From a virus (Duplodnaviria; Heunggongvirae; Uroviricota; Caudoviricetes): a stretch of 31,841 bases of DNA. Both the position numbers and the translations under genes were made by a program. The notes beneath the pieces are model-generated. The model was not told the origin of the DNA, did no database searches, and worked only from the letters and a program-made list of their open reading frames with translations. The stretch covers positions 1-31,841 of the IMG/VR virus record IMGVR_UViG_2558860161_000007, one strand, 5' to 3'. Positions 12,356-29,507 of the stretch are shown here, in pieces (positions within the stretch are counted from its first letter, which is position 1; the number at the start of each line of letters is the position of its first letter).

Positions 12356-12694
12356 TCAGCAGACGGCATATACACCATCAAATCCAACAGAAGGCACCTT
12401 CTTTGATGCTACTTCATTGCTACGACGCTGGATCACCTTTGCAATACTTTTTAAAATTGAAGGGGATGCATTGCGAACCTTTACCTGGCTCAAAACTTTG
12501 GTTACGCCGAATTTCACAACCAAAACACCAAAGATTTCATCAGAGTATGATTCTGAAATTGAATAAACGCCGCTCAAATCCAAATCAACAAAGTTCCCCT
12601 CATTGATGAGAACTTCAATCTTGTGCCGTTGGGGGATAGCCTGATTGCGCGAAGCCAGGTCACCCTCGGGCAACTTGTATGCAATTTTATTCAT
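12356..12694 (-). CDS. Small STAS-like (anti-sigma-factor-antagonist-like) protein; second gene of a two-gene cargo operon
   Basis: 112-aa ORF; segment FVDLDLSGVYSISESYSDEIFGVLVVKFG resembles the STAS/SpoIIAA-type core; AGGAGG Shine-Dalgarno inside the end of the upstream gene, and its start overlaps that gene's stop. Confidence 0.55.
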   Translation of the reverse strand: MNKIAYKLPEGDLASRNQAIPQRHKIEVLINEGNFVDLDLSGVYSISESYSDEIFGVLVVKFGVTKVLSQVKVRNASPSILKSIAKVIQRRSNEVASKKVPSVGFDGVYAVC

Positions 12695-13815
12695 TACTCT
12701 CCTCCTAACGCCCGCATGATTTCCATAAGTTGAGGGTCATTTTCTTCGTTATCGTAATCTTTATCGATCGCCAGTTCATGAATCTTAAAACGGCATGAAA
12801 TTGCCACACCTGACCACTCTTTATGCAATTCAGTGTAGCTCAATTGATCACCAACTGCCTCTAAGCATACATTTCCTGTAGCCAGTTGCAATTCCCCGTT
12901 GTATGTTTTTACCAATTTCATCAAGTGATATAGACCAAGCCCTTGATGATTATTCTCTTTTTCTTTAACTGCTACCGGAACACTTGCACCAAAGACGCTT
13001 CCACCCATATTGTCATACGGCAATTGCTGTGCCCAATCATCTATCAGATCAGCATGTTTAGATGAGTTACCTTCTTGTATACACCATGCTATGGCATCAC
13101 GATGATTGTCAATTCCTTTGATGCCTGCGCGCCTTAACTCTCTAAAAAACCCCATGCCACAGTCTGCAAGAGCAAACTCAAGATAATGCTCTTTTCCACC
13201 GGTTCTTGGTACTGCCCATTTTTGCGCAAAAGAAAAACCGGTATCCCTACCATGCGACCAGACGTTGTCGTGTAACTCACCAACCACACGTGTGAGATCG
13301 TTTATCCCTTGAGGATAAACCTTCCTCTCAGGGAATGTTAATTGCCTAATACAGCTATTTATACTTGAAGTAGCTGAATCGACTGCTTCAACATTCTTCA
13401 GAGCTGTCACAAGGCTGTAGTTGGTTCCGACATTAACTCTTTTTTGGTCATAACGGTCTTCCCCCCAAACAGCTTTGTGCAGACCAATGGCATTCATGTA
13501 ACCTGCGCCAGGTAAGTTGCAAGCATCTTCTGACAGCTTATTGTGATTTATATAAGCAGCCAAGACAGCAATATAGCCAGGGTGACAATGGTCATTCGGT
13601 AAAAGCAATTTCCCCTCACCACGATCATGAAATATAGCAATGCGGTGAATACCATCTTTTAGACCAAATCCCATTGACCAATCTCCACGAAAAATTTCCC
13701 CTATAATATCGCCTGGGAAAACTGAGCGCAAAGTAAAGCACTTAACCAAGCTTGCGCGCGCTCGTATCCCCGCCACGCCTGCCCGCTTTATGTAGTGGTT
13801 TTCATGCACCTGCAT
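12694..13815 (-). CDS. GHKL-superfamily (histidine-kinase-like) ATPase domain protein; first gene of the two-gene cargo operon
   Basis: 373-aa ORF with N-box-like VVGELHDNVWSHG, G1-like LADCGMGF and G2-like HQGLGLYHL in canonical order. The first ~27 codons overlap the cos-like site; an alternative start at Met48 (~13674) has a GGAG Shine-Dalgarno. The region is lower in GC than flanking phage genes. Confidence 0.6.
   Translation of the reverse strand: MQVHENHYIKRAGVAGIRARASLVKCFTLRSVFPGDIIGEIFRGDWSMGFGLKDGIHRIAIFHDRGEGKLLLPNDHCHPGYIAVLAAYINHNKLSEDACNLPGAGYMNAIGLHKAVWGEDRYDQKRVNVGTNYSLVTALKNVEAVDSATSSINSCIRQLTFPERKVYPQGINDLTRVVGELHDNVWSHGRDTGFSFAQKWAVPRTGGKEHYLEFALADCGMGFFRELRRAGIKGIDNHRDAIAWCIQEGNSSKHADLIDDWAQQLPYDNMGGSVFGASVPVAVKEKENNHQGLGLYHLMKLVKTYNGELQLATGNVCLEAVGDQLSYTELHKEWSGVAISCRFKIHELAIDKDYDNEENDPQLMEIMRALGGE
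13761..13800. other. cos-like site (cohesive-end region) of the P2/186-type prophage
   Basis: Reverse complement reads GGCGTGGCGGGGATACGAG, resembling the 19-nt P2/186 cohesive-end core as I recall it; the flank is homologous to two repeats in the satellite (24567..24640, 24878..24960). Confidence 0.5.
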
Positions 13816-13983
13816 GATCTACGCAAAAGCCCACCAGTTCTGGCGGGCCTTAGCAAAAACGATCCTCAAACGATCATGCGATCTCATGCGGCATAGACAT
13901 GCACTACAGAGCTAACGCCTCGCAAGGGCTCGTTGTTCAACCTTGCTGACGCCAGAAACAAGTTCAGACGCCAGCAACGTTTC

Positions 13984-14217
13984 TTAATGCAGCCAGCTGT
14001 CGTCTTCCCACACCTTCTGCATAATTTTCATCACTTGCTTCCTTTCTTCGTCCAGTTGCAGTCCGGTCAGTTCCACACCGTTAGAGCTACCTTTGCGGAT
14101 ACGAATTACCGTTTTGGGATACAGGGGGCGCAGATTACGGTAAAGCTCGGATTCAAGGGCGTCCAGGGTAGACTGGCTAATCTTCTGCTCTTTATCGATC
14201 ATTATTTCAATGCGCAT
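13984..14217 (-). CDS. DinI-family protein (SOS-regulated; DinI/Tum-C-terminal-like)
   Basis: From MRIEIMIDKEQKISQSTLDALESELYRNL...VWEDDSWL, which resembles E. coli DinI; GAGGTG Shine-Dalgarno before this Met; the ORF track extends it to 14289. Confidence 0.7.
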   Translation of the reverse strand: MRIEIMIDKEQKISQSTLDALESELYRNLRPLYPKTVIRIRKGSSNGVELTGLQLDEERKQVMKIMQKVWEDDSWLH

Positions 14218-14227
14218 AAAAGTCACC

Positions 14228-14416
14228 TCAGCTGATGACATCCATTGAGCGGTTGTATTCGTGGCTTCTGATTTTTGCCATGAGTTCATCAGTCAATTCA
14301 GAAACCCACTGCAGAGCCAGTCCCTTCTCTTCATCACTACACTCACTGGCCGCTACAAGCTTAAGAAAAAAATCAATGCGCTGGAGCTTCAAAGACTCCA
14401 AAAAATAGTCCTGCAT
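14228..14416 (-). CDS. Hypothetical 62-aa protein, first gene of a candidate LexA-controlled operon
   Basis: Small ORF immediately downstream of a LexA-box-like sequence and coupled to the DinI-like gene; no recognisable domain. Confidence 0.45.
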   Translation of the reverse strand: MQDYFLESLKLQRIDFFLKLVAASECSDEEKGLALQWVSELTDELMAKIRSHEYNRSMDVIS

Positions 14417-14456
14417 CTTTCCTCCTATGACACCACACGCAATACTGTATGTATAA

Positions 14457-14476
14457 CCACTGTTTATAATTACAGT
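14457..14476. promoter_or_regulatory. LexA box (SOS operator)
   Basis: cactgtttataattacagta matches CTGT-N8-ACAG with an AT-rich spacer; ~45 bp upstream of the 62-aa gene start (coordinates +/-2). Confidence 0.6.
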
Positions 14477-14569
14477 ATATAATAATCTTACTGATGTAAA
14501 ACGTTTTTTTACGTTTATCAGCCTGATATGCCTGGTATTATTAAGAGCACGAATGGTTAACCATCATAA

Positions 14570-16984
14570 TTAATACAGGTTTCGCCACTTATCATCTTCC
14601 TGCAAACGCTGGTTCCGATAGAAGATACGCAGGCCTGCTCCTGACGGAATACTGCCGCCGCGAAGGAGTAAATCGACCTCTTTCTCGCTACCATCAAACC
14701 CTCTGGACTTCAGCTCATACACGAGCTGCTGTCGCTGATGGTCTGTAATTCGCTGTTTGTAGTCTTTACGCCGTTTCGGTTTAACCAGGTGTAACCTTGC
14801 TGCCAGTTCCCGGCGTTCTTTTTTGCTCATACTGTGCAGGTAATCGTGCAACTCCTTGTCATCCATGCGGGTGATATCCGTTCTGGTATCCCCATCAGCT
14901 GATTTGTCTTTCCCTTGTTGGTTCAAATTTTCAGCAAGGGGACAGTTATTGCCACGAGTCCAAGGGGCGCAAGCGCCCTGGTCGGCTGCCGCCTCCTGAA
15001 CGTCAACGGCCTTACGAACCATTTTCCACTTCACTGCATGAGTGCAGATCTTGCCCTCTGCAATGGGTGACCAGATGCCATAAATACGAATACCGTGATC
15101 GCCATAGGCGGTTGGCTCTTCGTTGATTTCATAAGCGGTTCTGATGAGGTGATATTTGCGGGGAACCAGTACGCCGCCCTGCTTCATGATGTAGGTGGCA
15201 AAACAACCAGCATCAGCAGCAGCCAGGATGGCATCAAGGCGCGGGTTATCCAGTACCGGCGCACCTGCTTTTTTGTCCCCCTTTTGCCTTGCCGCCTGAC
15301 CAGCCAGCAATCGCAGTTCACGGTAAGCCTGACGCCCCGGAATGCCAAAGAAGCGGAATTGCTGAACACGATGCAAAGACGCCCAGGCATTCACGTATTC
15401 AGCGTTATCACGCAGAGATTTACCCGTTTCCTTGCTGATCTCGCCAGCCAGACCACGCCCGTCAATGTTCTTACTGATGTATTTCGCTATGTAGCTTGTC
15501 GGCGTTCCTTTGCGCGGGTTAATCAGCTCAGACTTAAAGCGCGGCCCCGTGTTATTGCCCAGCTCCTCGCGGTCTTCACGGATAGCAAACTTACGCAACA
15601 ATGCTGTAATGGCGCGGCGGTCTTTTTTGCGCATGAAACACAACAGGTGCCAGTGAACTGTGCCGTCGTGATGCGGCTCAGCCACCCGCACGCCATACCA
15701 GCGCAACCCGGCTTTGTGCATCGCCTTACGAAATGCAGCAAACATACCGACCAGATAATCGCTGCTTTGTCTTACCGTCGCATTTGTCCAGGTCGGGTTG
15801 GGCCTGCCGTTGTTGAGCGTGGAATGGAAACGTGACGGACAGGTGATAGTGTAGAAAACGGCGCAGTCACCGCGCATTTCCGCGATAAGCTCCAGACCTT
15901 TAACACAGGCCATCATCTCATTGCGGCGATGCGCAGGGTTGCTGCTGCTGGCGTTTACCACATCCTCCATGTCCAGCGTGTCGCCGTCTTCGTTCACCAG
16001 TTCATGAGAACGGAAAAACTCCAGCGACTTACGGCGCTGCTCACGTTTATGCATCACGGCTTCATAGCTGACATAGGGAGATGCTTTTTTGCTGACCAGG
16101 CAGACAGCACGCAACTGCTCTTCCCGCCATTCGCAACGCATCTTCCATAATTTCCGATACCACCAGTCGGCGCACAGCATACGCGCCAGCGAACCCGGAA
16201 TGAGTTCATAGGGCACGGGTTTACGGCGGTTTCTTTTCCGACGGAGTTGCTCAAACGCAGGTGGGATGACATCCAGACGCAGGGTTTCCGCCGCCACCTT
16301 TTCCCATGTCTTGCGGATTTCTTCTGGCTTAACGTCATCGGTGGCATACAAATCGCCACAAGCTGCATCAAGGCACATGCTCATATGCGCAGCTACCAGG
16401 GTGGACAGGCGTTTCACCTGATCCTGACTCATTTCAGGCAGGATCAGCAGGCCCTCCAGCCCTTGATGGCTTGCCATAAAACGGAAAGAAGCAGACAGCT
16501 GACTGTCACGTACACAATCCAGTCGCTCCAGACATGGCTTAATCGTCTCACGCAAATAGCGGGAATAAGCCTTTGGCCTGCCCAGGCTGCTGAAGTATTC
16601 GATACGTTGCATCAGCGGCTTGCTGATATGGGAAGGCTGGGCGCTGACGTCCGCCAGAATGACCATGTCCGGGTTAAAACGCTGCTGTTCATGCGCCAGC
16701 TTTGCCCGGCTAATGAGCTTATCCTGCTCCATTTCGCGCTGGACAGGATCACGAGATTCATTAAAGAAATAACGCTCCCAGACCTGCTCACTCAGTGCAT
16801 CGCGGCACAGCTGTTCCTGCTCATTATCGGCAGCGTACAGAGTGATCAGGTTTAAAAGTGCAGACTCCGGAGCAACTTCCGCCGGGTCCAGATAAGGGTT
16901 AATGGCCTTTTTCGGGCCGTTCCATGAAAATGCTGCAGCGGCCTCGTTAAAGCCGCTAGAGTTGCTCATATCGTCATGACTCAT
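14570..16984 (-). CDS. A: Replication initiation protein A (rolling-circle endonuclease, P2 gpA-like)
   Basis: 804-aa ORF; HWHLL-type motif ([10 protein letters not shown]) and general resemblance to P2/186 A. Confidence 0.9.
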
Positions 16985-17838
16985 ACACGCACCTCGTACA
17001 CAGCAGAACTATCCACGCCACACGAAGGATCAAATCCCACCCAGCAGCGCGCCCCGGAAACAGCAATGATTTCTGTTGCAGATTTACTCTCGCCAGCCGA
17101 CACGCCGATGCTGCGTTTTGCCTTGATGTAGTGGTGAGTGAAATTTCGATACAGCGAACGGATCAGGGATGTGTCACTGTTAGAAACAATGACTGGATGA
17201 CCTTCTGATGATCGATATTCAAGAACAGATGCCAGGTGATACTGGTCATCTTCAGTGAAGCCGTTAGTGTGATAGCCGGAAAACGTACCGTCATAAGGCG
17301 GATCGCAATACACCACATCCCCCACCTGCAGCATCGCCAGCGTTTCATCAAAGCTGGCGCAGATAAACGTTGCTTGCTGGGCTTTCTCTGCAAATGCGCG
17401 AATTTCTTTTTCAGGGAAATACGGATTTTTATAATTACCGTATGGAATGTTGAAATGCCCGCTCTTGTTATAACGACATAACCCACGGTAACCATGACGA
17501 TTGAGATACAGGAAATATACCGCTTTCATGAAATCAGTAATTTCAGTGGAGTAATTAAACTCCTGCCTTATGTTGTAATAAGCCAACTCCCTGTTTGCTT
17601 CCTCAAATAAAGCTCTGGCACGAGATATAAACGCCTCGCAATCAGCAGCAACCTTTTTATAGAGGTTGATTAAATCAGGATTAATATCCGCAACAAGATA
17701 GCTGGGGTAATCCGTCTCCATCATCACAGCACAGGAACCCGCGAAAGGTTCAACCAGTCGCGGGCCAGCAGGAAGGTGTTTTTTCAGTTCGGACATTACG
17801 GCGGTTTTATTTCCCGCCCATTTCAGGATGGTGCTCAT
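16981..17838 (-). CDS. dam: DNA adenine methyltransferase (Dam-like, N6-adenine)
   Basis: ILKWAGNK N-terminal motif, FAGS motif ([10 protein letters not shown]) and catalytic DPPY; likely start is [11 protein letters not shown] at ~17838 (ORF track 17898). Confidence 0.85.
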
Positions 17839-18062
17839 ACAGCACCCCCGTTGTAATGTTTGCCTTTCAGCTCTGCGATTTCCTGACAGGTAATGCAAAG
17901 CTGCACACCCGGAATGGCACGGCGGCGTGCTGGCGGAATTGGCGCTTCACACTCAACGCAAAGCACGCGGGACACGCCCGGCGTTTTGGCACGGGCAGCA
18001 CGGATATGGCGCTGGCGTTCTTCTTCAACGCGCTGCTGTACGAGATCCATTGCATCAGCCAT
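17835..18062 (-). CDS. TraR/DksA-family C4 zinc-finger protein
   Basis: 75-aa ORF with CVECEAPIP...CITCQ (four-Cys finger), typical of phage TraR-like proteins; overlaps the dam start. Confidence 0.7.
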   Translation of the reverse strand: MADAMDLVQQRVEEERQRHIRAARAKTPGVSRVLCVECEAPIPPARRRAIPGVQLCITCQEIAELKGKHYNGGAV

Positions 18063-19785: not shown

Positions 19786-20418
19786 ATGATACAGGTAAAA
19801 GCTGGCGAGAATACAGGGGGAAGAGAGGCTATCCATAGACTAATGGCAGCCTATGATTTCAAGTCCAGACAGCAACTTTGCGATCACTTAGGCGCATCAA
19901 AAAGCACTATGGCAAACAGATACTTAAGAGATAGCTTTCCCGCAGAGTGGGTGATTCAGTGCGCCTTGGAAACAGGAGTTTCTTTACTGTGGCTAACCAC
20001 CGGACAAGGCGAACCAGGTTCAAACATTGACCCTAAAAAAAATATCAATTCTGTGAACTCCAGCAGGGTTAAACCTCTTTCTGAGCTTGTATCTCCTGAA
20101 ATTGACAAGGCAACTCTCAACGGTGGTTTATTGGTCGATGCTGGAAAAGCAATCATTGATAGCAGCATACTCCCCTCAGACTCAAGCAACCTGCTGCTGG
20201 TGAGTACTTCTGGTGATTCTTATTTAATAGATCGCAACCAAACACCACCAGTAAATGGTACGTGGTTAGTGGACATCGACGGGATAAAAAGCATTGTAAA
20301 ATTGACACGACTCCCGGGAAACAGATTAGTAGTGCATCAGGATGATTCATCGTTTGAGTGCGAACTGGATGACATTGAGGTAATAGGTCGCGCACTGAAA
20401 ATCATTAAGAGCCTTTGA
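19786..20418 (+). CDS. cI: CI-like immunity repressor
   Basis: 210-aa ORF upstream of and co-directional with int, divergent from apl; the N-terminal region looks like an HTH. Confidence 0.75.
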   Translation: MIQVKAGENTGGREAIHRLMAAYDFKSRQQLCDHLGASKSTMANRYLRDSFPAEWVIQCALETGVSLLWLTTGQGEPGSNIDPKKNINSVNSSRVKPLSELVSPEIDKATLNGGLLVDAGKAIIDSSILPSDSSNLLLVSTSGDSYLIDRNQTPPVNGTWLVDIDGIKSIVKLTRLPGNRLVVHQDDSSFECELDDIEVIGRALKIIKSL

Positions 20419-20419
20419 T

Positions 20420-21445
20420 ATGACCATCAGAAAACAGCCGAACGGAAAGTGGTTATGTGAATGCTACCCAAACGGGAGAGATGGCAAACGCGTACGCAAA
20501 CAATTTGCGACGAAAGGCGAAGCCATTGCGTTTGAGAATTTCACCATGGATGAGGTAAACAAGAAACCTTGGCTGGGAGAAAAGGAAGATCGGCGACAAC
20601 TGTCAGAAGTGATTGAGCAATGGTATTCCCTGTACGGTCAGACACTCGCTGACCCTAAGCGATTAATGGCTAAGTTAAAAATCATTTGTAATGGACTTGG
20701 CGATCCCATCGCTTCTGAATTGACAGCAGGTGATTTCACAAAGTACCGGGAAGCCAGATTAAAAGGTGAGGTCAAAAACGAAGATGGCGTGCTCATGTCA
20801 CCGGTTAAGCCCAGAACGGTGAACCTTGAACAGCGTAACCTATCCTCAGTTTTTGGCACACTGAAAAAGCTGGGACATTGGTCTGCACCCAACCCCCTCG
20901 CCGGTCTGCCAACTTTCAAAATTGCAGAAGGTGAACTGGCGTTCCTTGCTGCTGATGAAATCAAACGCCTGCTTGACGCATGTGCTGAATCTCAAAGTCC
21001 CAGTCTGCTAATGATTGCCAAGATTTGCCTGGCTACCGGGGCAAGATGGAGCGAAGCCGAAAACCTGCAAGGTAACCAGATATCAAAGTATCGAATTACC
21101 TATACCAAAACAAAAGGAAAGAAAAACCGAACTGTTCCTATTTCTCAGGAACTGTATGAAGAATTACCCAAAAACAGAGGAAAGTTATTCACACCATGCC
21201 GAAAGGCTTTTGAGCGTGCGGTAAAACGAGCTGGAATTGAACTACCTGAAGGTCAATGTACCCACGTTCTGCGCCACACTTTCGCCAGTCACTTTATGAT
21301 GAACGGCGGAAACATTTTGGTATTGAGGGATATTTTAGGACACGCTGATATTAAAATGACCATGATTTATGCCCATTTTGCACCGGATCATCTGGAAGAT
21401 GCCGTTACCAAAAATCCACTTCATAACCTCAACTGGCATCGCTAA
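20420..21445 (+). CDS. int: Tyrosine integrase (P2/186 family)
   Basis: 341-aa ORF; C-terminal catalytic region HVLRHTFASHF...LGHADIKMTMIYAH with the conserved R, H-x-x-R and Y; adjacent to the att core. Confidence 0.9.
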   Translation: MTIRKQPNGKWLCECYPNGRDGKRVRKQFATKGEAIAFENFTMDEVNKKPWLGEKEDRRQLSEVIEQWYSLYGQTLADPKRLMAKLKIICNGLGDPIASELTAGDFTKYREARLKGEVKNEDGVLMSPVKPRTVNLEQRNLSSVFGTLKKLGHWSAPNPLAGLPTFKIAEGELAFLAADEIKRLLDACAESQSPSLLMIAKICLATGARWSEAENLQGNQISKYRITYTKTKGKKNRTVPISQELYEELPKNRGKLFTPCRKAFERAVKRAGIELPEGQCTHVLRHTFASHFMMNGGNILVLRDILGHADIKMTMIYAHFAPDHLEDAVTKNPLHNLNWHR

Positions 21446-21562
21446 TAAATGGCGGCATTTTGGCGGCAGAACACTAAAAACAAGTAAAACAAGCAAATAC
21501 AGACTAACACTAACACAATGATTTAAAATAAAAAAATATGATTTTGTTAGTATAAAAATGGT

Positions 21563-21607
21563 ATGTAGGAATTTCGGACGCGGGTTCAACTCCCGCCAGC
21601 TCCACCA
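21563..21607 (+). other. ssrA: Attachment-site core identical in character to the 3' end of tmRNA (ssrA), ending ...GGTTCAACTCCCGCCAGCTCCACCA
   Basis: The ~45-nt atgtaggaatttcggacgcgggttcaactcccgccagctccacca matches my recollection of the enterobacterial tmRNA 3' terminus; upstream is AT-rich phage DNA and the int stop, so only a 3' fragment is present. Confidence 0.65.
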
Positions 21608-21642
21608 AATAATGATCCGGATGTGTCCGGTGAAGTACAGAA

Positions 21643-21677
21643 AGCCCGCATGGCACAAGCCCTGCGGGCTTTTTTGT
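21643..21677 (+). terminator. Rho-independent terminator (likely the native ssrA terminator)
   Basis: Perfect stem agcccgca / tgcgggct with a 12-nt loop, followed by TTTTTTG. Confidence 0.6.
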
Positions 21678-21720
21678 GTCTGTCGTTGTCCGAGGGCATC
21701 CGGCTAAATCCAGTGTTTAT

Positions 21721-21770
21721 TGGTATACGTTTTGGTATACGGTAGGATGTATACCTAAAAGCGTATACCA
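21721..21770. promoter_or_regulatory. Cluster of four GTATAC palindromes upstream of the satellite integrase; candidate regulator or arm-type binding sites
   Basis: tggtatacg, tggtatacgg, atgtatacct and gcgtatacca within 50 bp, read directly. Confidence 0.3.
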
Positions 21771-21791
21771 ATTCATGAAGGAGCGGCCACA

Positions 21792-22991
21792 GTGGCACGG
21801 ACAACTCGCCCCCTAACCAACACCGAAGTTCTGCGCGCGAAAGCGTTAGAGAAGGATCTAACGCTGCATGATGGTGATGGGCTTTTCCTGATAGTGAAAA
21901 CTAGCGGCAAGAAACTCTGGCGCTTTCGCTATCAACGCCCAGCAACAAAACAACGGACTATGATGGGACTTGGTGCTTTTCCTGCCCTTTCTCTTGCTGA
22001 TGCCCGAGGGTTAAGAGCAGATTACCTTGCCCTATTAGCCAACGGAATCGACCCGCAAATTCAAGCTGAAGTTGCAGAGGAACAGCAGCAAATCGCTCTG
22101 GACAGTATTTTTTCGACGGTCGCCGCTAACTGGTTCCAGCTCAAAAGCAAAAGCGTTACCCCTGATTACGCTAAAGATATATGGCGTTCACTGGAAAAAG
22201 ACGTATTTCCAGCTATCGGTGAGACCCCTGTCCAGCAAATCAAAGCCCGAACACTGGTTGAAGCCCTTGAACCGATCAAAGCACGTGGGGCGCTGGAGAC
22301 AGTTCGTAGACTGGTACAGCGTATCAACGAAATAATGATTTATGCGGTTAACACTGGCTTGATTGATGCCAACCCCGCATCAGGTATTGGTATGGCTTTT
22401 GAGAAACCCAAAAAGCAAAACATGCCGACGTTGCGACCAGAAGAATTGCCTAAGCTGATGCGTTCGCTAGTCATGTCAAATCTATCTGTTCCGACTCGCT
22501 GTCTTATTGAGTGGCAACTCCTGACGCTCGTGCGCCCTTCTGAGGCTTCAGGTGCTCGATGGGCTGAGATCGATCTCAATGCCAAACTCTGGACAATTCC
22601 AGCCGAACGAATGAAAGCTAAACGTGAACATATAGTACCTCTATCTACACAGGCGTTAGAGATTCTAGAAGTGATGAAGCCAATCAGTGCTCATCGCGAA
22701 CATGTTTTTCCGAGCAGGAACGACCCCAAAAAATCAATGAACAGCCAAACGGCAAACGCTGCCTTAAAACGCATAGGCTATGGAGGTAAGCTTGTTGCTC
22801 ATGGTCTACGTTCTATAGCGAGTACAGCTCTTAATGAAAATGGTTTTAATCCAGATGTAATTGAAGCAGCATTAGCACATTCGGATAAGAATGAAGTAAG
22901 ACGTGCATATAATCGTTCTACCTATTTAGAACAACGTCATGAGTTAATGAATTGGTGGGGTTGTAAAGTTTGCCCTACCAATTCATTATAA
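21792..22991 (+). CDS. int: Tyrosine integrase (P4/CP4-57 family) of the satellite element
   Basis: 399-aa ORF (GTG start); N-terminal arm-binding-type region (GDGLFLIV...KLWRFRY) and C-terminal catalytic region (AHGLRS...ALAHSDKNEVRRAYNRSTY). Confidence 0.9.
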   Translation: MARTTRPLTNTEVLRAKALEKDLTLHDGDGLFLIVKTSGKKLWRFRYQRPATKQRTMMGLGAFPALSLADARGLRADYLALLANGIDPQIQAEVAEEQQQIALDSIFSTVAANWFQLKSKSVTPDYAKDIWRSLEKDVFPAIGETPVQQIKARTLVEALEPIKARGALETVRRLVQRINEIMIYAVNTGLIDANPASGIGMAFEKPKKQNMPTLRPEELPKLMRSLVMSNLSVPTRCLIEWQLLTLVRPSEASGARWAEIDLNAKLWTIPAERMKAKREHIVPLSTQALEILEVMKPISAHREHVFPSRNDPKKSMNSQTANAALKRIGYGGKLVAHGLRSIASTALNENGFNPDVIEAALAHSDKNEVRRAYNRSTYLEQRHELMNWWGCKVCPTNSL

Positions 22992-23002
22992 GATAAAACA
23001 GA

Positions 23003-24421
23003 TCATACTTTACCGGGGTATGTTTTAAACATACTCCTTAATACGTCAAATGTCTGTTCACCTATGATTGAAAATTCTTTAATCATTTCCATTAAGTTAT
23101 TTCGGCTAATCAAGAAAATATACAAACCTTGATCTTTCGATATTTCTTTCACTCTATCAAGATACTTTTCCTCGGCAGAATTTTCGCAGAATATTAAACC
23201 TATCTTAGAATTACATTCTTCGACTTTTCTAAGTGTAGTATAAATATGTTCCTCGTTCAATTTATGCTGAGGATCAATGACATTTACAACTATCAACTCT
23301 GAAATAATGTTGTACACTGAAAAATCGAAAAAGAAACCTTTCTTAGCCTCATTAATTAATGAAAAGAGGCAGCACTGTTCATCCTCACTTATTAATTTGG
23401 GGTAAAACAAGCTAGGATAGAAGATTGAAATCAATATTTTCTTGTATGCTTTAGTGTAATTACTAAAGTCGTTGTTTTTAATTGATAAATCAATATCTTT
23501 CATTAGATCTTTTATGGGGAGAATTACAGGATCTTCATCCTTATCAAAATCACTATGCGCTAGAGGATTCGGAGGATTAATCTCCAGCTCTTTTTTATAT
23601 TCTTTCAAGGTGTTAGGGTATTTTACGAGCTGAGACTCGATAAATCCCTTAGTCTGACCATACTCATCAATGATACTTGTTGTGGTAACAATCCGCTCCC
23701 CTTTAAGCACTTTAACTAATGCCGAGCCAGAGCTTATCAATTCCTTTTTCATTTCCGGAATAATATGCCTCCGATATAAATCCCTATGTGAATAGATTAT
23801 CTCTTCACGTGCAAGTATCTTAGGAATAAGGATAATCTCCTCGCCTTCATAAACAGGGAGATGAAAACGATTTTTATGCCATTTACTACTAACCTTATCC
23901 CACGTTTTGACTTCTGAAACCTCTTTAGTCTCAATGCCGTAAAATATACAAATATCCTTTGTATATTCTATAAAAAAACCTTTGAGAATATTACAAACTG
24001 AATCCGATATTCGGTCAGAACCAATACCTGGGATAGTCAGAGCTGTATCTTCTAGATCAGTTAATATTCCTGATTTTGCAGCCTGACTACTCTTTAGAGA
24101 ATCCAAAATATCTTCAGCAGTTTTTTCACCAAGAGCAGTTCCGGATGATTCTTTTGTTGAATATCCTAAATGAAAGGCATTGGTCTCTCTTAGTGATGAC
24201 AATAAATAAGCAGCTTTTTTAAAATTATTATTCTTTATAGACGCCATTATTTCTGTAAAATAGTCTTGTAACGCGTAAACTAAATCCTGCCCCCATTGGG
24301 ATTTTAAAACCTTTATAGATGTTGGATCTAAAAAAAACCTTAAATCAGTATGCAGAGGAATATCCAAAAAATCTAACGCTACTTGTCTGCCTTCAACTCC
24401 AAAAGCCTCTGAAAACCTCAT
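23003..24421 (-). CDS. Hypothetical AT-rich cargo protein (~472 aa) in the satellite int-cos hotspot
   Basis: ORF 23003..24448; likely start is the ATG at ~24421 with a GGAG Shine-Dalgarno. GC is markedly lower than its neighbours, it is convergent with int, and I recognise no domain by eye. Confidence 0.55.
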   Translation of the reverse strand: MRFSEAFGVEGRQVALDFLDIPLHTDLRFFLDPTSIKVLKSQWGQDLVYALQDYFTEIMASIKNNNFKKAAYLLSSLRETNAFHLGYSTKESSGTALGEKTAEDILDSLKSSQAAKSGILTDLEDTALTIPGIGSDRISDSVCNILKGFFIEYTKDICIFYGIETKEVSEVKTWDKVSSKWHKNRFHLPVYEGEEIILIPKILAREEIIYSHRDLYRRHIIPEMKKELISSGSALVKVLKGERIVTTTSIIDEYGQTKGFIESQLVKYPNTLKEYKKELEINPPNPLAHSDFDKDEDPVILPIKDLMKDIDLSIKNNDFSNYTKAYKKILISIFYPSLFYPKLISEDEQCCLFSLINEAKKGFFFDFSVYNIISELIVVNVIDPQHKLNEEHIYTTLRKVEECNSKIGLIFCENSAEEKYLDRVKEISKDQGLYIFLISRNNLMEMIKEFSIIGEQTFDVLRSMFKTYPGKV

Positions 24422-24566
24422 GTAACACTCCTTTACAATAATCAACATAAAAACAAGAGCATTCTTATTTTTATAGCAAAGGTGGTTTAATCACAAGATC
24501 TTATGAATTGAGCAACAATAATTATCCCTATTTTTTGAAGCTGACGAACATTTCACGTTGCGTACA

Positions 24567-24640
24567 GAGCTTTCCCCGCCTCGCCTGCACGCCTCGTGGG
24601 TCTGTTTTAATGCAGTTGCTTTGCGAGGCTCAGGCTGCCA
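24567..24640. repeat. cos-like repeat copy 1 (P2-type variant)
   Basis: Reverse complement reads GGCGAGGCGGGGAAAGCTC; homologous to copy 2 and to the helper cos-like region. Confidence 0.5.
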
Positions 24641-24877
24641 CAGACTCGAATACGTCAAGGGAATAGCAGCTTTAGAAGCGACGTAATGAACGCCAGAATG
24701 ACTAGTTTCCTCCACCGCCGGGCGGCCTTTTCTTGCACTTCTCCTGACCACCTCAGGGCTCTCCACGCCCTCGAACAGCACCGCACCACCCACCGACACT
24801 CCCGAGAACCCGCGCAGTACAGCGACGCACTCAGGCCGCGAAATTAAATATAATTAAATACTTTACCGCTGGCGCGC

Positions 24878-24960
24878 AATGCTCTCCCCGCCACGCCTGC
24901 CCGCTTCCCGGGGCGCTTTTAATGCAGGTGCATGAAGAGGCTCAGGCCGCGCCAGTGCTG
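24878..24960. repeat. cos-like repeat copy 2 (variant closest to the resident helper)
   Basis: Reverse complement reads GGCGTGGCGGGGAGAGCAT; the flank (ctgcccgctt...ttttaatgcaggtgcatga) aligns with the helper region at 13761..13815. Confidence 0.5.
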
Positions 24961-25061
24961 GTGCGACAGAGTGTGGAAAATTCAGGGTTTTGCATGCAAA
25001 GCCATGCAGCGTAGGCATGCATGGCTATTTTTATTAAAAAGACGGGTATTTTCGGGGCGTT

Positions 25062-25637
25062 TTATGCGGATTTTTTGCGGGTCTGCGCGGCCTGTCGGCG
25101 CATGAAAATCTGACTCTGTTCAGGCGTATATTTTGCCCGGTTGTCGTCTCTCGATGCTCTGTCAGGCCGGAAACCGATGGTTGTCAGAATGTCGCGATCA
25201 TCCTCTGCGTAATCAATATTTCCTCCGCGGGTTACATAAACGGACAGCGCTTCGCGAACACTGGCGGCCGCCCGGTCGAGAGCACGTTCTCTGACAATGT
25301 CAGGTTGTTCGCTGAGATGCATTAATTCCGGTGCCAGTGCGGCGGCCAGCGCGTCGCCGCTTACCTGCATAAAGGCGTGGAGCTGACACCGGATACTGAT
25401 ACGCTGCACGGCCTCATGTGACCGGATGTACTGCCCGGCCGACTGATTTACCGCCCATTTTTTCAGGTCAATATCATCCCGCAGCGCCTGTGCGGCCTCC
25501 GGTTCATAACGGGTGCAGGTCAGCTCCAGCTCCTTCAGCGCCATTTCTGCCCGCGCCAGTGCTGACTTGCTGCTCATCCAGTCCGATTTATTCTTCTGAC
25601 AGGTTTCAAAGGCCTGTTCCAGTAGTGCTCGTGCCAT
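25062..25637 (-). CDS. psu: Psu-like polarity suppression / capsid decoration protein
   Basis: 191-aa ORF; conserved AGQYIRSHEAVQ.ISIR and ILTTIGFRPD segments, as I recall for P4 Psu (190 aa). Confidence 0.8.
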   Translation of the reverse strand: MARALLEQAFETCQKNKSDWMSSKSALARAEMALKELELTCTRYEPEAAQALRDDIDLKKWAVNQSAGQYIRSHEAVQRISIRCQLHAFMQVSGDALAAALAPELMHLSEQPDIVRERALDRAAASVREALSVYVTRGGNIDYAEDDRDILTTIGFRPDRASRDDNRAKYTPEQSQIFMRRQAAQTRKKSA

Positions 25638-25653
25638 TGTCTTTTCTCCTGAA

Positions 25654-25896
25654 TCAGTGGCGCAGCGATGACCGGGCGCAGTCCAGAATTCGGGGCGGTG
25701 TTTCTGGTACTGTTTGTGGTGGTTCGGGCTTTTCTTCTGCCGGTGGCCGTATCACCTCGTCGATAGACTCGGTGGTGCGAAAGGTTGCGGAGCAAAAGAC
25801 ATTCACGCACTGGAGGTAGCTCTGTTTGACGTTATCTGACAGGTAACGGCTGGTACGGACATGGGCAGCCTGTTTGCAGTACGGGCAGCGCATCAT
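25654..25896 (-). CDS. delta: Delta/Ogr-family zinc-finger late transcription activator
   Basis: 80-aa ORF starting MMRCPYC with CPYC...C..C..CSATF, the hallmark of Ogr/Delta. Confidence 0.85.
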   Translation of the reverse strand: MMRCPYCKQAAHVRTSRYLSDNVKQSYLQCVNVFCSATFRTTESIDEVIRPPAEEKPEPPQTVPETPPRILDCARSSLRH

Positions 25897-26696
25897 GGCT
25901 TAACCCCCCGCGTTTTTTTCTTCTGTGCCAGCTCTTTAGCCCGCGCCATTCTGAGAACAGGGCTTTTATAGAGTTTCATATCCACGCCGGTGAGTGCCGG
26001 ACGGTGAAGCCCAATTTTTGAAATTACTGGTTCATGCTCCATGTTGAATGTGTAGTACCTGCTTTGCGCCAGTACATTCTCACCCAGCTCCTGAATGAGA
26101 ACGTTGTGAGGGTGTTCTTCTCCCTTAATCTCGAGCTCACGCAGACGTAACGCAAATGCGCGCACCAGTGAGGGAGGGATGTCTTTCATCACGGTCGCCC
26201 ACTCATTCCGGGAGTAGGCAGAGAACACCGTAAAATGCGTGCCGACGTACTTATCTCCTGATGTACAGGCGGACAGCATGGTACTGGCCTTATCATCGTT
26301 GAGTTCATCAATCAGGGCGGTGAATTCCTCCGCCAGCTCCCGACCGGCCACTCGCTGACTGTGTTCGGCTTTCAGTTCCGGGGTCATCATGCCGCGCAGT
26401 TCGCGAAAACGGGTACGCCAGTTCTGTTCGGCTTCGGCACTTTCATTCAGGGCGTTCTGACGCTCTTTCTCACTGCGGGCAATGGCCGCATCAATATCAT
26501 TCAGCTTCAGCATGTTTTCCGTGTGCGCGGATTTGGCCTTGCTGAACACATCAAGAGCGTTATTTATCGTGGCCTCGGCGTTCTGGTTTGCTTTCTCGTT
26601 AAGGGTATCCAGTGCGCTGTCAATGGCCGTGCGGATGTTCTCATCCTGCGTGCTGCCGATGGTTTTCATTACTGCGGTAAACAAATCTGGTTTCAT
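25893..26696 (-). CDS. sid: Sid-like capsid size determination protein (putative)
   Basis: 267-aa helical/charged protein in the sid position of the psu-delta-sid operon; assigned by synteny and character, not strong sequence recall. Confidence 0.5.
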   Translation of the reverse strand: MKPDLFTAVMKTIGSTQDENIRTAIDSALDTLNEKANQNAEATINNALDVFSKAKSAHTENMLKLNDIDAAIARSEKERQNALNESAEAEQNWRTRFRELRGMMTPELKAEHSQRVAGRELAEEFTALIDELNDDKASTMLSACTSGDKYVGTHFTVFSAYSRNEWATVMKDIPPSLVRAFALRLRELEIKGEEHPHNVLIQELGENVLAQSRYYTFNMEHEPVISKIGLHRPALTGVDMKLYKSPVLRMARAKELAQKKKTRGVKP

Positions 26697-26770
26697 CGTC
26701 GGGTTCTCTCTGTGTTTTCAACCTGACGCCATTCTGCCGTCCCTCAGACAACAACTCGATTCATTGCCGT

Positions 26771-26788
26771 TGTAGCAGACATGGCACA
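26771..26788. promoter_or_regulatory. TGT-N12-ACA dyad upstream of the sid operon (candidate Psid activator site)
   Basis: tgtagcagacatggcaca, ~83 bp upstream of the sid-like start. Confidence 0.4.
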
Positions 26789-26864
26789 AACAGGACTTAA
26801 AAACCCGGCTGGCCAGAGAAAGGTCGCAGGAAACCCCCTCTCTCTGTTTGTTTTTTTACATATA

Positions 26865-26970
26865 ACTATTCACTACTGTTCACTCAGAATAAAAATATAA
26901 GTAAAACAATAAATTAAAGAGTGAACAGTTGAGAGGGAAGTGTTCACCAACTGTTCACTACTGTTCACTG
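26865..26970. promoter_or_regulatory. Cluster of CTGTTCAC repeats (five or more copies, both orientations) in the satellite divergent regulatory region
   Basis: ctattcactactgttcactcag ... gagtgaacagttgag ... tgttcaccaactgttcactactgttcactgg, read directly. Confidence 0.35.
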
Positions 26971-27247
26971 GTCTGAACATCCCGAATGTAAATTTTATGC
27001 GGTATGTCCTATTAATTCATGCTGTTAGGGTGATTAAATCAATTTGCATTTCACTTTTGAAATCTCCAGTGCCTTATAACTCCTTCCAGTGCCTTTAAAT
27101 GGTCTTGAGTAAAAAAACAGCACCCGTTGTCCCGTGCTTTGTACAATTTCCCCCTGTTGCATTGAGAAAAAATATTCACAAAATAGAGCGCTACCTGATA
27201 CCGGACGGACACGTCCGGATCTCTGCGGATATTAACGAGGTAGCGTT

Positions 27248-27514
27248 ATGCACACAGTTTCATCAGTACCATCGTCCCCCACAACCGCGCACCTGATGCC
27301 GGTTTCAGCCCCGGCTCAGGAACGTTTTTTACGTCTCCCGGAAGTCATTCATCAGTGCGGTCTGTCCCGCTCCACGCTCTACGATTTAATTGCCCGCAAT
27401 GCTTTCCCGGCGCAGGTTTCCCTCGGGGGTAAAAATGTCGCCTGGCTGCAGTCTGAAATCACAGCGTGGATGGCAGAACGTGTCGCGCACCGCAACCGGA
27501 AATACGACGCATGA
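27248..27514 (+). CDS. AlpA/Vis-family HTH transcriptional regulator
   Basis: 88-aa ORF containing [29 protein letters not shown], the AlpA-type helix-turn-helix; GAGG Shine-Dalgarno upstream. Confidence 0.7.
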
Positions 27515-27549
27515 ATCAGAGCCGATTTCACAAAGCCCCTTTTTCTGGC

Positions 27550-27665
27550 TTGCATCCGTTGTGTGTTTCCTGGTACAGTTTTGTCGCTGTCGCAAAATCG
27601 ACAGCCGGGCGTGGAAACCCGAGCAACTCGAAGGCGACACCAGACGCGCCATGCGTCTTTTTTTG
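27550..27665 (+). ncRNA. Candidate small structured RNA (promoter-hairpin-terminator unit) in the satellite immunity-region position
   Basis: TTGCAT-18 bp-TACAGT promoter-like hexamers, hairpin gctgtcg-caaaat-cgacagc, then stem agacgc-gccat-gcgtct followed by TTTTTTT; the long overlapping ORFs here lack convincing starts. Confidence 0.3.
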
Positions 27666-27912
27666 TGTCGCAACTAACGCCACAGAGCGCCAGATAATGG
27701 CGTGGTGTGCGGATCGTCGTGCAGACGTCACTTTGTGTCTCCTGTCCGCAATCGCATATCATGCTGTCATGTCAATGGTAGCTCAGGCGGGGCAGCCCTC
27801 GGGCTGGCCGGTATTCTTCGAGGCCGGTATTTCCACCCCCGTCTGGGCTATCGCCACTGAGCGTGGAAACTCCGGCGATAGCAATAATTTGCTACTCGAA
27901 GGAGGTTGCCTT

Positions 27913-28110
27913 ATGGCTACGACCCTCACTCCGTCTCACCCGCAGTTTGTCTTTGTGTTTGCCGCCGTCCGTCGCGCAGACCGTAAGCCCCGTATCTGTA
28001 TGCTCCGCACCGTTGCCGGTGACGAGCTGGCCGCCCGCCGCACCCTTGTCCGCGAATACGTGCTTTCCCTTGCCGCCCGTCTGCCGGTTCTGGAGGTGTC
28101 ACATGCATAA
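27913..28110 (+). CDS. Hypothetical small protein (65 aa)
   Basis: ATG preceded by a GGAGG Shine-Dalgarno (gaaggaggttgccttATG); terminates with an overlap on the next start. Confidence 0.45.
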
Positions 28111-28402
28111 TAAAAATACCCCTCAGACCGTCTCAGCGCGTCGTGATGACCTTAACCCCATGAAGGAACACCTCAGCATAGAGGCGTACCATAAACTCAA
28201 TCGCGCCAGCGCCGTCTCACAGTTCGTGGGAGGAGATTTGCTGCGCCGTGAACTGAACGGTTTACACCAGCTATACCTGCCGCAGATTTTTAGTTATATC
28301 CATGAGGACGTCAGCTACGTCCTGGAAGAGCTGAAAGCCAAAGGCCTGTGCCGTGACTTTCTCGCCACGACGTCGGGAAACGGAGGTGAGCACCATGTTT
28401 GA
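28103..28402 (+). CDS. Hypothetical protein (99 aa)
   Basis: ATG (MHNKNTPQ...) preceded by GGAGGTG; lies within the longer 27863..28402 track ORF. Confidence 0.5.
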
Positions 28403-28844
28403 TTTCCCTCAGCCGGGTGAAACATATCGCTGTACAGGATTTCCTGATGTGGTGGTGTCGGGCGTGCTGGCCGACGGTATTCCGTGGGATATGCCGTACC
28501 GCTGTCCGGGGCTGGTCTGGAACCCGTACCGGCGCACCTACACCATCCTCATTCGTATTATTGCCGGTGGCAGCATGGCAGAAATTCCGCTCGGTCGTTT
28601 TTTGCGGGACTTTACCTGTGAGCATCCCGACGTATTTAAACGTAACCCTGAAAACCGCCACGCCGTATTACGCGAAATAGCGGCCGACCCGGCATTACAG
28701 CAATACCGGGCGCGGAATATCGATAACTATCCTGACGATATTCCCCCGGTTAAACGTCCGGCGCCGGTGGCGCATAAATGGCGGAATAATTTCAGACCGG
28801 AAACGGAAATAAAACCGGATAACAGCTACCGCCATTATCTGTAA
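28395..28844 (+). CDS. Hypothetical protein (149 aa)
   Basis: ATG ([11 protein letters not shown]...) preceded by GGAGGTGAGC; overlaps the previous stop. Confidence 0.5.
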   Translation: MFDFPQPGETYRCTGFPDVVVSGVLADGIPWDMPYRCPGLVWNPYRRTYTILIRIIAGGSMAEIPLGRFLRDFTCEHPDVFKRNPENRHAVLREIAADPALQQYRARNIDNYPDDIPPVKRPAPVAHKWRNNFRPETEIKPDNSYRHYL

Positions 28845-28915
28845 TTAAAAACGACACCCAAAAATAAAATGTGCGTATCTGCGCAGGGATACGCACGTCC
28901 TCAGGAGACGAAATA

Positions 28916-29176
28916 ATGCCTGTTAACAGTACGGAACGGCCGCAGAATACAAACCAGCCCATCATCAGCCGGGCAGACCTTGAATGTCTCGAACATATGC
29001 GCAACGTCGGCCAGCTCGTCGGCGACCTGATGCAGGTGCAGGACTGCACCTCTTTGCGCCACAACCCGGCGCAGCAACTACAGCTCACCTCGGTGATTTA
29101 CCTCATGACTGCCCGGCTCGACGGCGTGGTCGACCGCTGTAATCAGCGCTGGCTGACCGGGGAGGGCAACGTATGA
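28916..29176 (+). CDS. Hypothetical protein (86 aa)
   Basis: ATG (MPVNSTERP...) preceded by AGGAGA; a perfect hairpin gtgcgtatc-N8-gatacgcac lies just upstream. Confidence 0.45.
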
Positions 29177-29493
29177 AAAAGCCATTAACGCCCGTCTTAC
29201 GCGCCGCGCTCTATCGCCGTGCGGTCGCCTGTGCCTGGCTGACCCTGTGCGAAAGTCAGCACCGCTACCCGCAGCTCACGCTCAGTACGCTGGAAAGCGC
29301 CATTGCGACCGAGCTGGAGGGCTTCTACCTGCGCCAGCACGGCGAGGAAAAAGGCCGCCAGATTGCCTGTGCCCTGCTCGAAGATTTAATGGAAGCCGGA
29401 CCACTCAAGGCCGCCCCGTCGCTGTCCTTTCTCGGGCTGGCCGTGATGGATGAACTCTGCGCCCGCCATATCACCGCACCGGTACTGCACTGA
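29173..29493 (+). CDS. Hypothetical protein (106 aa)
   Basis: Start overlaps the previous stop (ATGA); immediately upstream of the primase gene. Confidence 0.5.
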
Positions 29494-29507
29494 GGGAGAA
29501 AATAACG

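Follow-up and report, generated by a model that had tools for sequence, protein, structure and literature searches.

A probable split tum operon behind two overlapping LexA boxes in a Fels-2-like prophage

Introduction

Coliphage 186 carries its SOS switch in the p95-tum-orf97 operon, and the Tum protein encoded there sequesters the immunity repressor CI in a reversible manner (PMC7708051). Tum is one fused protein of 146 amino acids (aa) whose gene has internal starts; in the 186 record, inhibition of DNA binding by CI is assigned to the full-length form only, and modulation of SOS induction to the in-frame products from the C-terminal part. Here, we describe how a two-gene operon in a 31,841-nt stretch of viral DNA (IMG/VR record IMGVR_UViG_2558860161_000007, positions 1 to 31,841, hereafter the window) compares with this system and its relatives. 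The window carries a prophage of the P2/186 family, and the operon, which encodes a 62-aa protein and a DinI-like protein, had been taken in an earlier reading of the letters (the sequence-only reading) for a Tum-like SOS module in two-gene form.

A divided tum has precedents. According to one paper, the tum homologue is split in two in Fels-2 and PSP3, where tumA is the antirepressor and tumB a DinI homologue (PMC3121763). In Salmonella carrying Fels-2, the DinI-like gene STM2727 went up 5.5- to 14.8-fold after exposure to the mutagen MX, with STM2726, STM2727, and STM2728 acting as a single operon (PMC2225428). In the PSP3 record, tumA carries the annotation "UV induction of prophage" and is called similar to the 5' end of 186 tum; PSP3 shows the same layout as the window, with two genes behind a LexA box downstream of gene A. 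A Yersinia phage has a 60-aa gene annotated "tum protein" and no DinI gene. Papers retrieved in a search for TumA/TumB were all unrelated. Bunny et al. are said, in 2002, to have named the Fels-2 tum homologue as the cause of lexA-null lethality.

A more distant parallel is offered by the dinI-gfoA/gftA operons of the Gifsy-1/2/3 prophages, which are LexA controlled and, as is proposed for the operon in the window, pair a DinI homologue with a small antirepressor that acts on a non-cleavable repressor (PMC3121763). These prophages differ from the window in being lambdoid, in having dinI first (reversed order), and in using a different repressor family. For Gifsy prophages it is also established that antirepressors act in trans, and dinI deletions had no effect on their induction (Lemire et al., PMC3121763).

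In what follows, sequence elements, homologies and their conservation, the purifying selection that acts on the small gene, and the repressor type were computed by us, and what is said of antirepressor activity and of SOS induction of the Fels-2 copy is taken from the literature on these relatives.

Results

The Module Is Near-Identical to the Fels-2 Locus.

All elements of the module lie on the minus strand, in the order gene A, LexA-box promoter, 62-aa open reading frame (ORF), and DinI-family gene. Replication gene A (16984..14570; Pfam Phage_GPA, E 1e-127) has its stop at 14570, from which a gap of 153 bp leads to the ORF for the 62-aa protein (14228..14416). This tumA-like gene encodes a predicted two-helix hairpin and presumed CI antirepressor, and it is preceded by a Shine-Dalgarno sequence AGGAGG at 14421..14426, 4 nt before its ATG, which reads AGGAGG(G) in all the loci that we aligned. 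The tumB-like gene for a 77-aa protein of the DinI family (Pfam) follows at 13984..14217, its ATG placed 10 nt past the stop of the 62-aa ORF and in a different frame, with a Shine-Dalgarno sequence of its own (GAGGTG, 14224..14229, 6 nt before the ATG) that overlaps the TGA of the first gene. Both genes are thus present as the sequence-only reading had described them, including the start MRIEIMIDK... and the GAGGTG of the second. The span that it gave, 14217-14480, takes in only the first base of the DinI-like start codon; that gene runs to 13984.

The closest relative is the Fels-2 prophage of Salmonella LT2. From the stop of gene A to the stop of the DinI-like gene, Fels-2 DNA is 95.7% identical to the window; STM2728 shares 60 of its 62 residues with the small protein, and STM2726.1 is identical to the DinI-like protein throughout (77/77). 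Fels-2 shares the order of gene A, module, variable region, and portal gene Q and has both of the LexA boxes described below. The two prophages differ in their CI proteins, which are only 58% identical, and downstream of the module, where an unrelated two-gene cargo in the window stands in place of STM2726, a gene that corresponds to orf97 of 186 in length (732 bp) and position, on which alone the two were compared. With 186 itself, the window shares a LexA box over a TACTGT -10 element, the place downstream of gene A, and the type of immunity region (CI/Apl/CII/Fil in 186; cI, CII (CP76), and Fil found with Pfam in the window). It differs in having two genes instead of one fused tum. PSP3 has two genes as well, but they are in frame with only a stop codon between them, while those of the window are in different frames.

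Since it is near-identical to the Fels-2 locus and equivalent to PSP3 tumA/tumB, the module has in effect been described before, and the two-gene form of Tum is not new, having been published for both of these phages. We consider it very probable that the module is the known split tum, of the tumA/tumB type, and the SOS induction operon of a Fels-2-like prophage in the P2/186 family.

The Two Proteins Match the Two Halves of Tum.

The 62-aa ORF is a real gene under purifying selection in its annotated frame. Among 32 distinct orthologues, differences at codon positions 1, 2, and 3 numbered 235, 73, and 655, and 533 synonymous codon changes stood against 241 nonsynonymous ones, with no comparable excess in the other frames.

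The sequence-only reading had found no recognizable domain in the product, which is true as far as Pfam and NCBIfam go, for searches of these and of PADLOC returned nothing for the 62-aa protein; homology to the N-terminal part of Tum is nevertheless detectable. A Smith-Waterman alignment with residues 1-70 of 186 Tum scored 57 (z = 8.9), a score equaled by none of 2,000 shuffles, and placed residues 6-41 of one protein on residues 6-41 of the other. In PHROG, residues 7-44 of 186 Tum matched phrog_698, the family of the window protein, with an E value of 2.4e-5, and reciprocally the window protein matched phrog_8554 and phrog_1993, the latter, with an E value of 0.002, being the family to which PSP3 TumA belongs. 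When a profile of 24 family members was compared by hhalign with a profile of the N-terminal half of 186 Tum, PSP3 TumA, and the Yersinia "tum protein," the two aligned over residues 6-43 on both sides with 97.2% probability and an E value of 3.9e-11. These alignments establish homology between the 62-aa protein and residues 6-43 of 186 Tum, which belong to its N-terminal, antirepressor half, although identity to that part is only about 21%. Pairwise BLASTP produced no alignment of the 62-aa protein with either 186 Tum or PSP3 TumA, nor of PSP3 TumA with 186 Tum; this null result reflects the limited sensitivity of the method for very short proteins and is not evidence against homology.

The family is small, comprising 87 clusters in an exhaustive HMMER profile search, almost all with proteins of 50-75 aa. 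AlphaFold2 predicts a two-helix hairpin for the window protein, with helices at residues 2-23 and 28-61 and a predicted local distance difference test score (pLDDT) of 90. A Foldseek search of the Protein Data Bank with this model found generic two-helix hairpins only, all with E values above 1, and is uninformative on function.

Public names of the protein are "hypothetical protein" (PGAP) and "unknown function" (phrog_698), and one UniRef entry and one phage record call it "levan regulatory protein." The tumA assignment made in PSP3 is reflected in none of them. Going by these labels, what is known of tumA has not reached annotation.

The second protein matches the whole of Pfam DinI (PF06183; profile positions 1-63 of 63, E 6.6e-23, 81.3 bits against a cut-off of 24.2). 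It aligns with the C-terminal 76 residues of 186 Tum (residues 71-146) at about 41-42% identity (E 3e-24) and is 78% identical to PSP3 TumB. The alignment of both proteins to 186 Tum, which the sequence-only reading had proposed as a check, thus places one on the N-terminal and one on the C-terminal part. Identity to Escherichia coli DinI is about 30%. The score of 42.7 bits against NCBIfam NF007893, the equivalog of chromosomal DinI, falls below the cut-off of 111 bits, which argues that this is a phage DinI-like paralogue and not the host DinI. Family membership suggests that the protein might bind RecA filaments and modulate the SOS response.

A p95-Like Promoter Lies under Two Overlapping LexA Boxes.

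The motif CTGT-N8-ACAG that the sequence-only reading had pointed out occurs once in the window, at 14460-14475, with its core ending 43 nt before the ATG at 14416. Taken alone, a single match is unremarkable: 0.44 are expected by chance per window, and 37 of 100 shuffled windows held at least one. It is the position of the motif and its conservation that carry weight. Scored with a heterology index, which was built on 19 E. coli LexA sites and gives approximate values, the corresponding 20-mer, TACTGTAATTATAAACAGTG on the minus strand (14477..14458), is the best LexA site in the window, with an index of 4.5. The second best, with an index of 7.7, is CAGTGGTTATACATACAGTA on the minus strand at 14443..14462, which had escaped the sequence-only reading. 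Among 63,644 positions scanned, the next-best LexA-like site elsewhere in the window had an index of 12.0. Box 1 (14458..14477) and box 2 are offset by 15 bp and have one core base pair in common.

Box 1 overlies what appears to be the -10 element of a promoter, and box 2 lies just downstream of box 1. The candidate -10, TACTGT (14472..14477, minus strand), is found inside box 1, 17 nt after a -35 element TTTACA (14495..14500, minus strand), which was read from the sequence and belongs to a conserved island in an intergenic alignment of 25 loci; an alternative -10, TATACT at 14474-14479 with a 15-nt spacer, is likewise within box 1. We infer that TTTACA is a promoter element from the annotation of its equivalent in 186 p95, given there as TTCACA-18-TACTGT inside the LexA box, with TACTGT forming the left arm of that box. 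The TTTACA-17-TACTGT of the window has the same architecture. A scan of the minus strand for consensus promoters did not flag the SOS promoter, which was defined by reading and by comparison with 186.

The arrangement of the two boxes has a counterpart in the cea operator of ColE1, where two boxes with the same 15-bp offset share one core base pair at the junction CAGTGGTTATA. The junctions are almost identical, reading TGCTGTATATAAAACCAGTGGTTATATGTACAGTA in ColE1 and TACTGTAATTATAAACAGTGGTTATACATACAGTA in the window. The ColE1 operator sequence was confirmed in NC_001371, where the ORF directly downstream is presumably the start of colicin E1. The likeness is limited to operator design, the genes under control being unrelated. 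By contrast, 186, PSP3, and the Yersinia phage have a single LexA box each, all very good ones with scores of 0.6-0.9. In colicin genes, two SOS boxes overlap and take up two LexA dimers, which block untimely expression of a lethal product (PMC2994835). By analogy, the double operator predicted here would probably make expression tight and late, as in colicin operons. Tight repression makes sense in colicin and phage operons alike since the product kills the cell that makes it.

The Small Gene Is the Constant Part of the Module.

We scanned one genome per species with the single 62-aa protein and obtained 33 related loci, from Escherichia, Citrobacter, Enterobacter, Klebsiella, Raoultella, Kluyvera, Serratia, Pantoea, Erwinia, Tatumella, and others. 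Wherever a locus extends far enough to tell, its small gene sits between gene A and portal gene Q. A LexA box is found upstream in 32 of the 33 loci, which come from different Enterobacterales species, and a second box follows at exactly +15 bp in 22 of them, as it does in Fels-2; only one box is present in the loci from Pantoea, Erwinia, and Tatumella. The sole locus without a box, L038 from Siccibacter turicensis, has an ORF that has decayed to 20 aa. When the intergenic DNA of 25 loci was aligned, conservation was confined to the -35 and its A-tract, the LexA boxes, and the ribosome-binding site, and the flanks had diverged. Within a single species, the module was present in 1,125 of 5,426 complete E. 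coli genomes, about a fifth, and in these the small gene bears the label "hypothetical protein."

The DinI-like gene is less constant, with no tblastn match after the small gene in 12 of the 33 loci (the loci noted for this absence or, in the case of L038, for loss of the LexA box and most of the small ORF are L012, L014, L023, L026, L031-L038, and L040). Since the DinI-like gene is missing from so many loci, the small gene is the constant part of the module; its partner looks like an accessory that the core switch can do without.

Where both genes are present, they are separate. A two-gene split in which the second gene has its own ribosome-binding site and ATG was seen in 21 of the 33 loci, in addition to Fels-2 and PSP3. 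At the junction in these 21 loci, a stop, a G-rich ribosome-binding site, and the ATG are kept, while the stop codon used and the spacer vary, so that the split is old and maintained rather than a recent frameshift. The sequence-only reading had named a frameshifted single gene as what would speak against its proposal, and the breadth of the split does not bear this out.

The Small Protein Does Not Covary with the CI Repressor.

For the 62-aa protein, the presumed target is an immunity repressor of the 186 type with 210 aa, encoded by cI at 19786..20418 on the plus strand. It matches Pfam Phage_CI_repr (E 4.8e-31) and Phage_CI_C (E 4.3e-28), and the same Pfam search detected no LexA-like (S24) peptidase domain in it. 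With no such domain, RecA-stimulated self-cleavage of CI is not expected, and induction would be expected to take the antirepressor route. That the 62-aa protein targets CI in this prophage is what the analogy with 186 suggests.

Across prophages, the small protein is 71-98% identical and CI 34-93%. In the 16 prophages for which all four genes were available (those for the small protein, CI, gene A, and CII), median pairwise identity was 86% for the small protein and 42% for CI, and the two sets of identities were uncorrelated, with a Spearman rho of 0.05. Small-protein identity did track that of gene A (rho 0.47) and of CII (rho 0.40). Pairwise identities are not independent, so that p-values overstate significance, but the contrast is still clear. 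Phages with almost identical small proteins can have CI proteins that are only 46-58% identical. Identity of the CI in the window to heteroimmune repressors is 46% for a 198-aa class and 34% for 186 CI. The part of CI that is best conserved among these prophages is the helix-turn-helix (HTH) domain, residues 31-75. In the Pantoea stewartii locus (L029), a CI that on inspection resembles that of 186 is paired with this type of small protein.

Two explanations offer themselves, and we regard this as a lead and not as a finding: either the small protein recognizes a conserved surface of CI and works for different immunity types, or the immunity regions have been exchanged by recombination while the backbone stayed conserved. 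A specific form of the former is that small proteins of the phrog_698 type are generalist antirepressors recognizing the conserved HTH of 186-type CI, whatever its immunity class. We hold this idea tentatively, as a possibility that is more likely to prove wrong than right.

The Probable End of the Operon Lies Next to a Cargo Hotspot.

Two hairpins follow the DinI-like gene on the minus strand. The first, at 13943..13977, is a stem-loop directly after the stop, has no U-tract, and appears in both the minimum-free-energy and the centroid RNA folds. The second, at 13823..13851, is terminator-like, with an 11-bp stem followed by UUUU, and it was found by RNA folding, having been missed in a scan for consensus terminators. 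A 176-nt stretch that holds both hairpins folds at z = -3.2. The second hairpin is likely the end, or a partial end, of the operon; 186 has a partial terminator, t95a, after tum.

The segment 13752-13983, which comprises both hairpins and some 22 first codons of an ORF listed as 373 aa, is conserved in nearly all related loci, and the DNA beyond 13752 is replaced among them. It thus forms the fixed edge of a cargo hotspot, and since the first ~22 codons belong to this edge, the annotated start of the 373-aa ORF at 13815 is probably not real. Homologues of the ORF begin near M47.

The cargo itself consists of two genes (12356-13815, minus strand) in the variable region between portal gene Q and the DinI-like gene. 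The larger of the two encodes a protein of ~324 aa with no Pfam domain, which belongs to phrog_3364 (unknown function), and the other, joined to it by an ATGA overlap, a 112-aa STAS-like DUF4325 protein. Homologues are called "hypothetical" in Enterobacterales, Pseudomonas, Acinetobacter, and Vibrio; one from Citrobacter freundii is a 100% match. An AlphaFold2 model of the larger protein (pLDDT 80.6) gave weak Foldseek hits, all of them GHKL ATPases (ParE, GyrB, CheA; E 0.02-0.3), and PADLOC reported for the small protein a weak match to a DrmA segment only. The pair might be a kinase or ATPase with a STAS partner, perhaps a defense system.

Upstream of gene A, and directly next to it in the early operon, is a gene for a Dam-like DNA adenine methylase of the D12 class (16981-17898, minus strand; Pfam E 2.4e-76). 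Fels-2 has such a gene in the same place, while 186 has a PAPS-reductase-like gene there. A P4-like satellite (21500-31841) lies directly right of the P2-like integrase (20420-21445), so that helper prophage and satellite sit in tandem. In the matching regions of E. coli, the annotated products are an integrase-domain protein, a primase-helicase, Sid, the polarity suppression protein (Psu), an Icd-like protein, and an LA2681-family HEPN protein.

Discussion

The proposal that this operon is a Tum-like SOS module in two-gene form has gained in substance from the homology of its two products to the two halves of Tum, from the p95-like promoter, and from the presence of a CI of the 186 type, all of which point to a tumA/tumB-type induction operon. 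Several observations weigh against this. The link to PSP3 TumA is weak, with a Smith-Waterman z of 2.25 and a PHROG E value of 0.002, and the exhaustive HMMER search did not reach the fused Tum of 186 type at library-wide significance. The statement that the upstream gene of PSP3 is the antirepressor goes back to a personal communication of G. E. Christie, cited at second hand (PMC3121763). The approximate values of the heterology index belong here too. So does the lack of covariation with CI since a strictly cognate pair of antirepressor and repressor would be expected to covary.

This last point is also the starting point for two other explanations. The operon might be an SOS-regulated accessory ("moron") unit that tunes the host SOS response via its DinI-like protein, with the 62-aa protein as a partner or modulator of DinI or RecA instead of a CI antirepressor and with induction of the prophage by some other route. 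The missing covariation is what one would then see, a functional link between the two parts is plausible because they are fused in 186, and the Gifsy deletions leave the role of DinI open. Yet the small gene persists with no DinI gene beside it in a third or so of the loci (12 of 33), and going by the 186 record, anti-CI activity requires the very part of 186 Tum to which it is homologous. PSP3 tumA is annotated as needed for UV induction, and since CI has no self-cleavage domain, some antirepressor is needed in any case. We therefore consider a pure accessory role improbable. The same pattern could arise if the 62-aa protein, as an antirepressor, did not target its cognate CI, or did not target it exclusively, but recognized a conserved surface that heteroimmune 186-type repressors share, so that it would act in trans on other P2-like prophages of the same cell. 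The uncorrelated identities of the two proteins, the conservation of the HTH domain, the pairing in the Pantoea locus, and the trans-acting antirepressors of Gifsy all agree with this. Mosaic recombination of immunity regions against a conserved backbone would, however, yield the same pattern, and the idea extends the tumA/tumB interpretation rather than excluding it; as an alternative to that interpretation we find it highly improbable.

Two further explanations would deny the module any function or any SOS control, and we rejected both. A dead module, with the two ORFs as remnants of a tum gene recently broken by a frameshift or nonsense mutation, might be thought of because tum is a single fused gene in 186 and because the PSP3 genes are in frame with a stop codon between them. 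It is contradicted by a split that persists, each time with a separate ribosome-binding site and ATG, in 21 or more species-level loci, by purifying selection on the first ORF, and by a second protein identical to that of Fels-2, while the only decayed copy that we saw, in S. turicensis, has lost both ORF and LexA box; the chance of a pseudogene is close to nil. A LexA-like motif that had arisen by chance in AT-rich intergenic DNA, leaving the operon outside SOS control, would be in keeping with the frequency of such motifs in shuffled windows. But this match falls in the very gap of 153 bp where 186 has its LexA box, it is accompanied by a second box 15 bp away, with the two being the best-scoring sites of the window, and boxes are kept in nearly all loci in spite of diverged flanks. 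The Fels-2 copy, moreover, is induced by a mutagen. Coincidence has hardly any probability left after this.

Under the tumA/tumB interpretation, the switch might work as follows. In an undamaged cell, LexA dimers, which we infer to occupy both boxes, would cover the -10 and start region of a sigma-70 promoter and keep the operon off. Upon DNA damage, activated RecA would stimulate self-cleavage of LexA, and the promoter would fire. Since in 186 LexA cleavage derepresses p95 and Tum sequesters CI, the same path would be taken here, with the 62-aa protein as the part that binds CI: the two-helix protein would bind the 186-type CI and reversibly keep it off its operators, the early lytic promoter would be freed, and the prophage would excise and replicate. 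The DinI-like protein probably acts on RecA filaments, tuning the strength or duration of the SOS response, and would be dispensable for the core switch. With its double operator, the operon is probably expressed tightly and late, so that lysis would follow only after serious damage.

SOS-controlled prophage induction via an antirepressor, and not via cleavage of the repressor, is textbook biology of the 186 family, to which the present locus adds a double operator in colicin style, a DinI gene that is dispensable, and a small protein that does not covary with CI. If the small gene were named correctly, P2-like prophages that are likely SOS inducible could be picked out, which matters for phage release triggered by antibiotics, for the activation of P4-like satellites by helpers, and for the transfer of cargo genes. 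The double operator and the lack of covariation are modest leads on how tight and how broad the switch is. Should the small protein turn out to be a generalist antirepressor, SOS induction of one P2-like prophage could rouse others of different immunity that share its cell.

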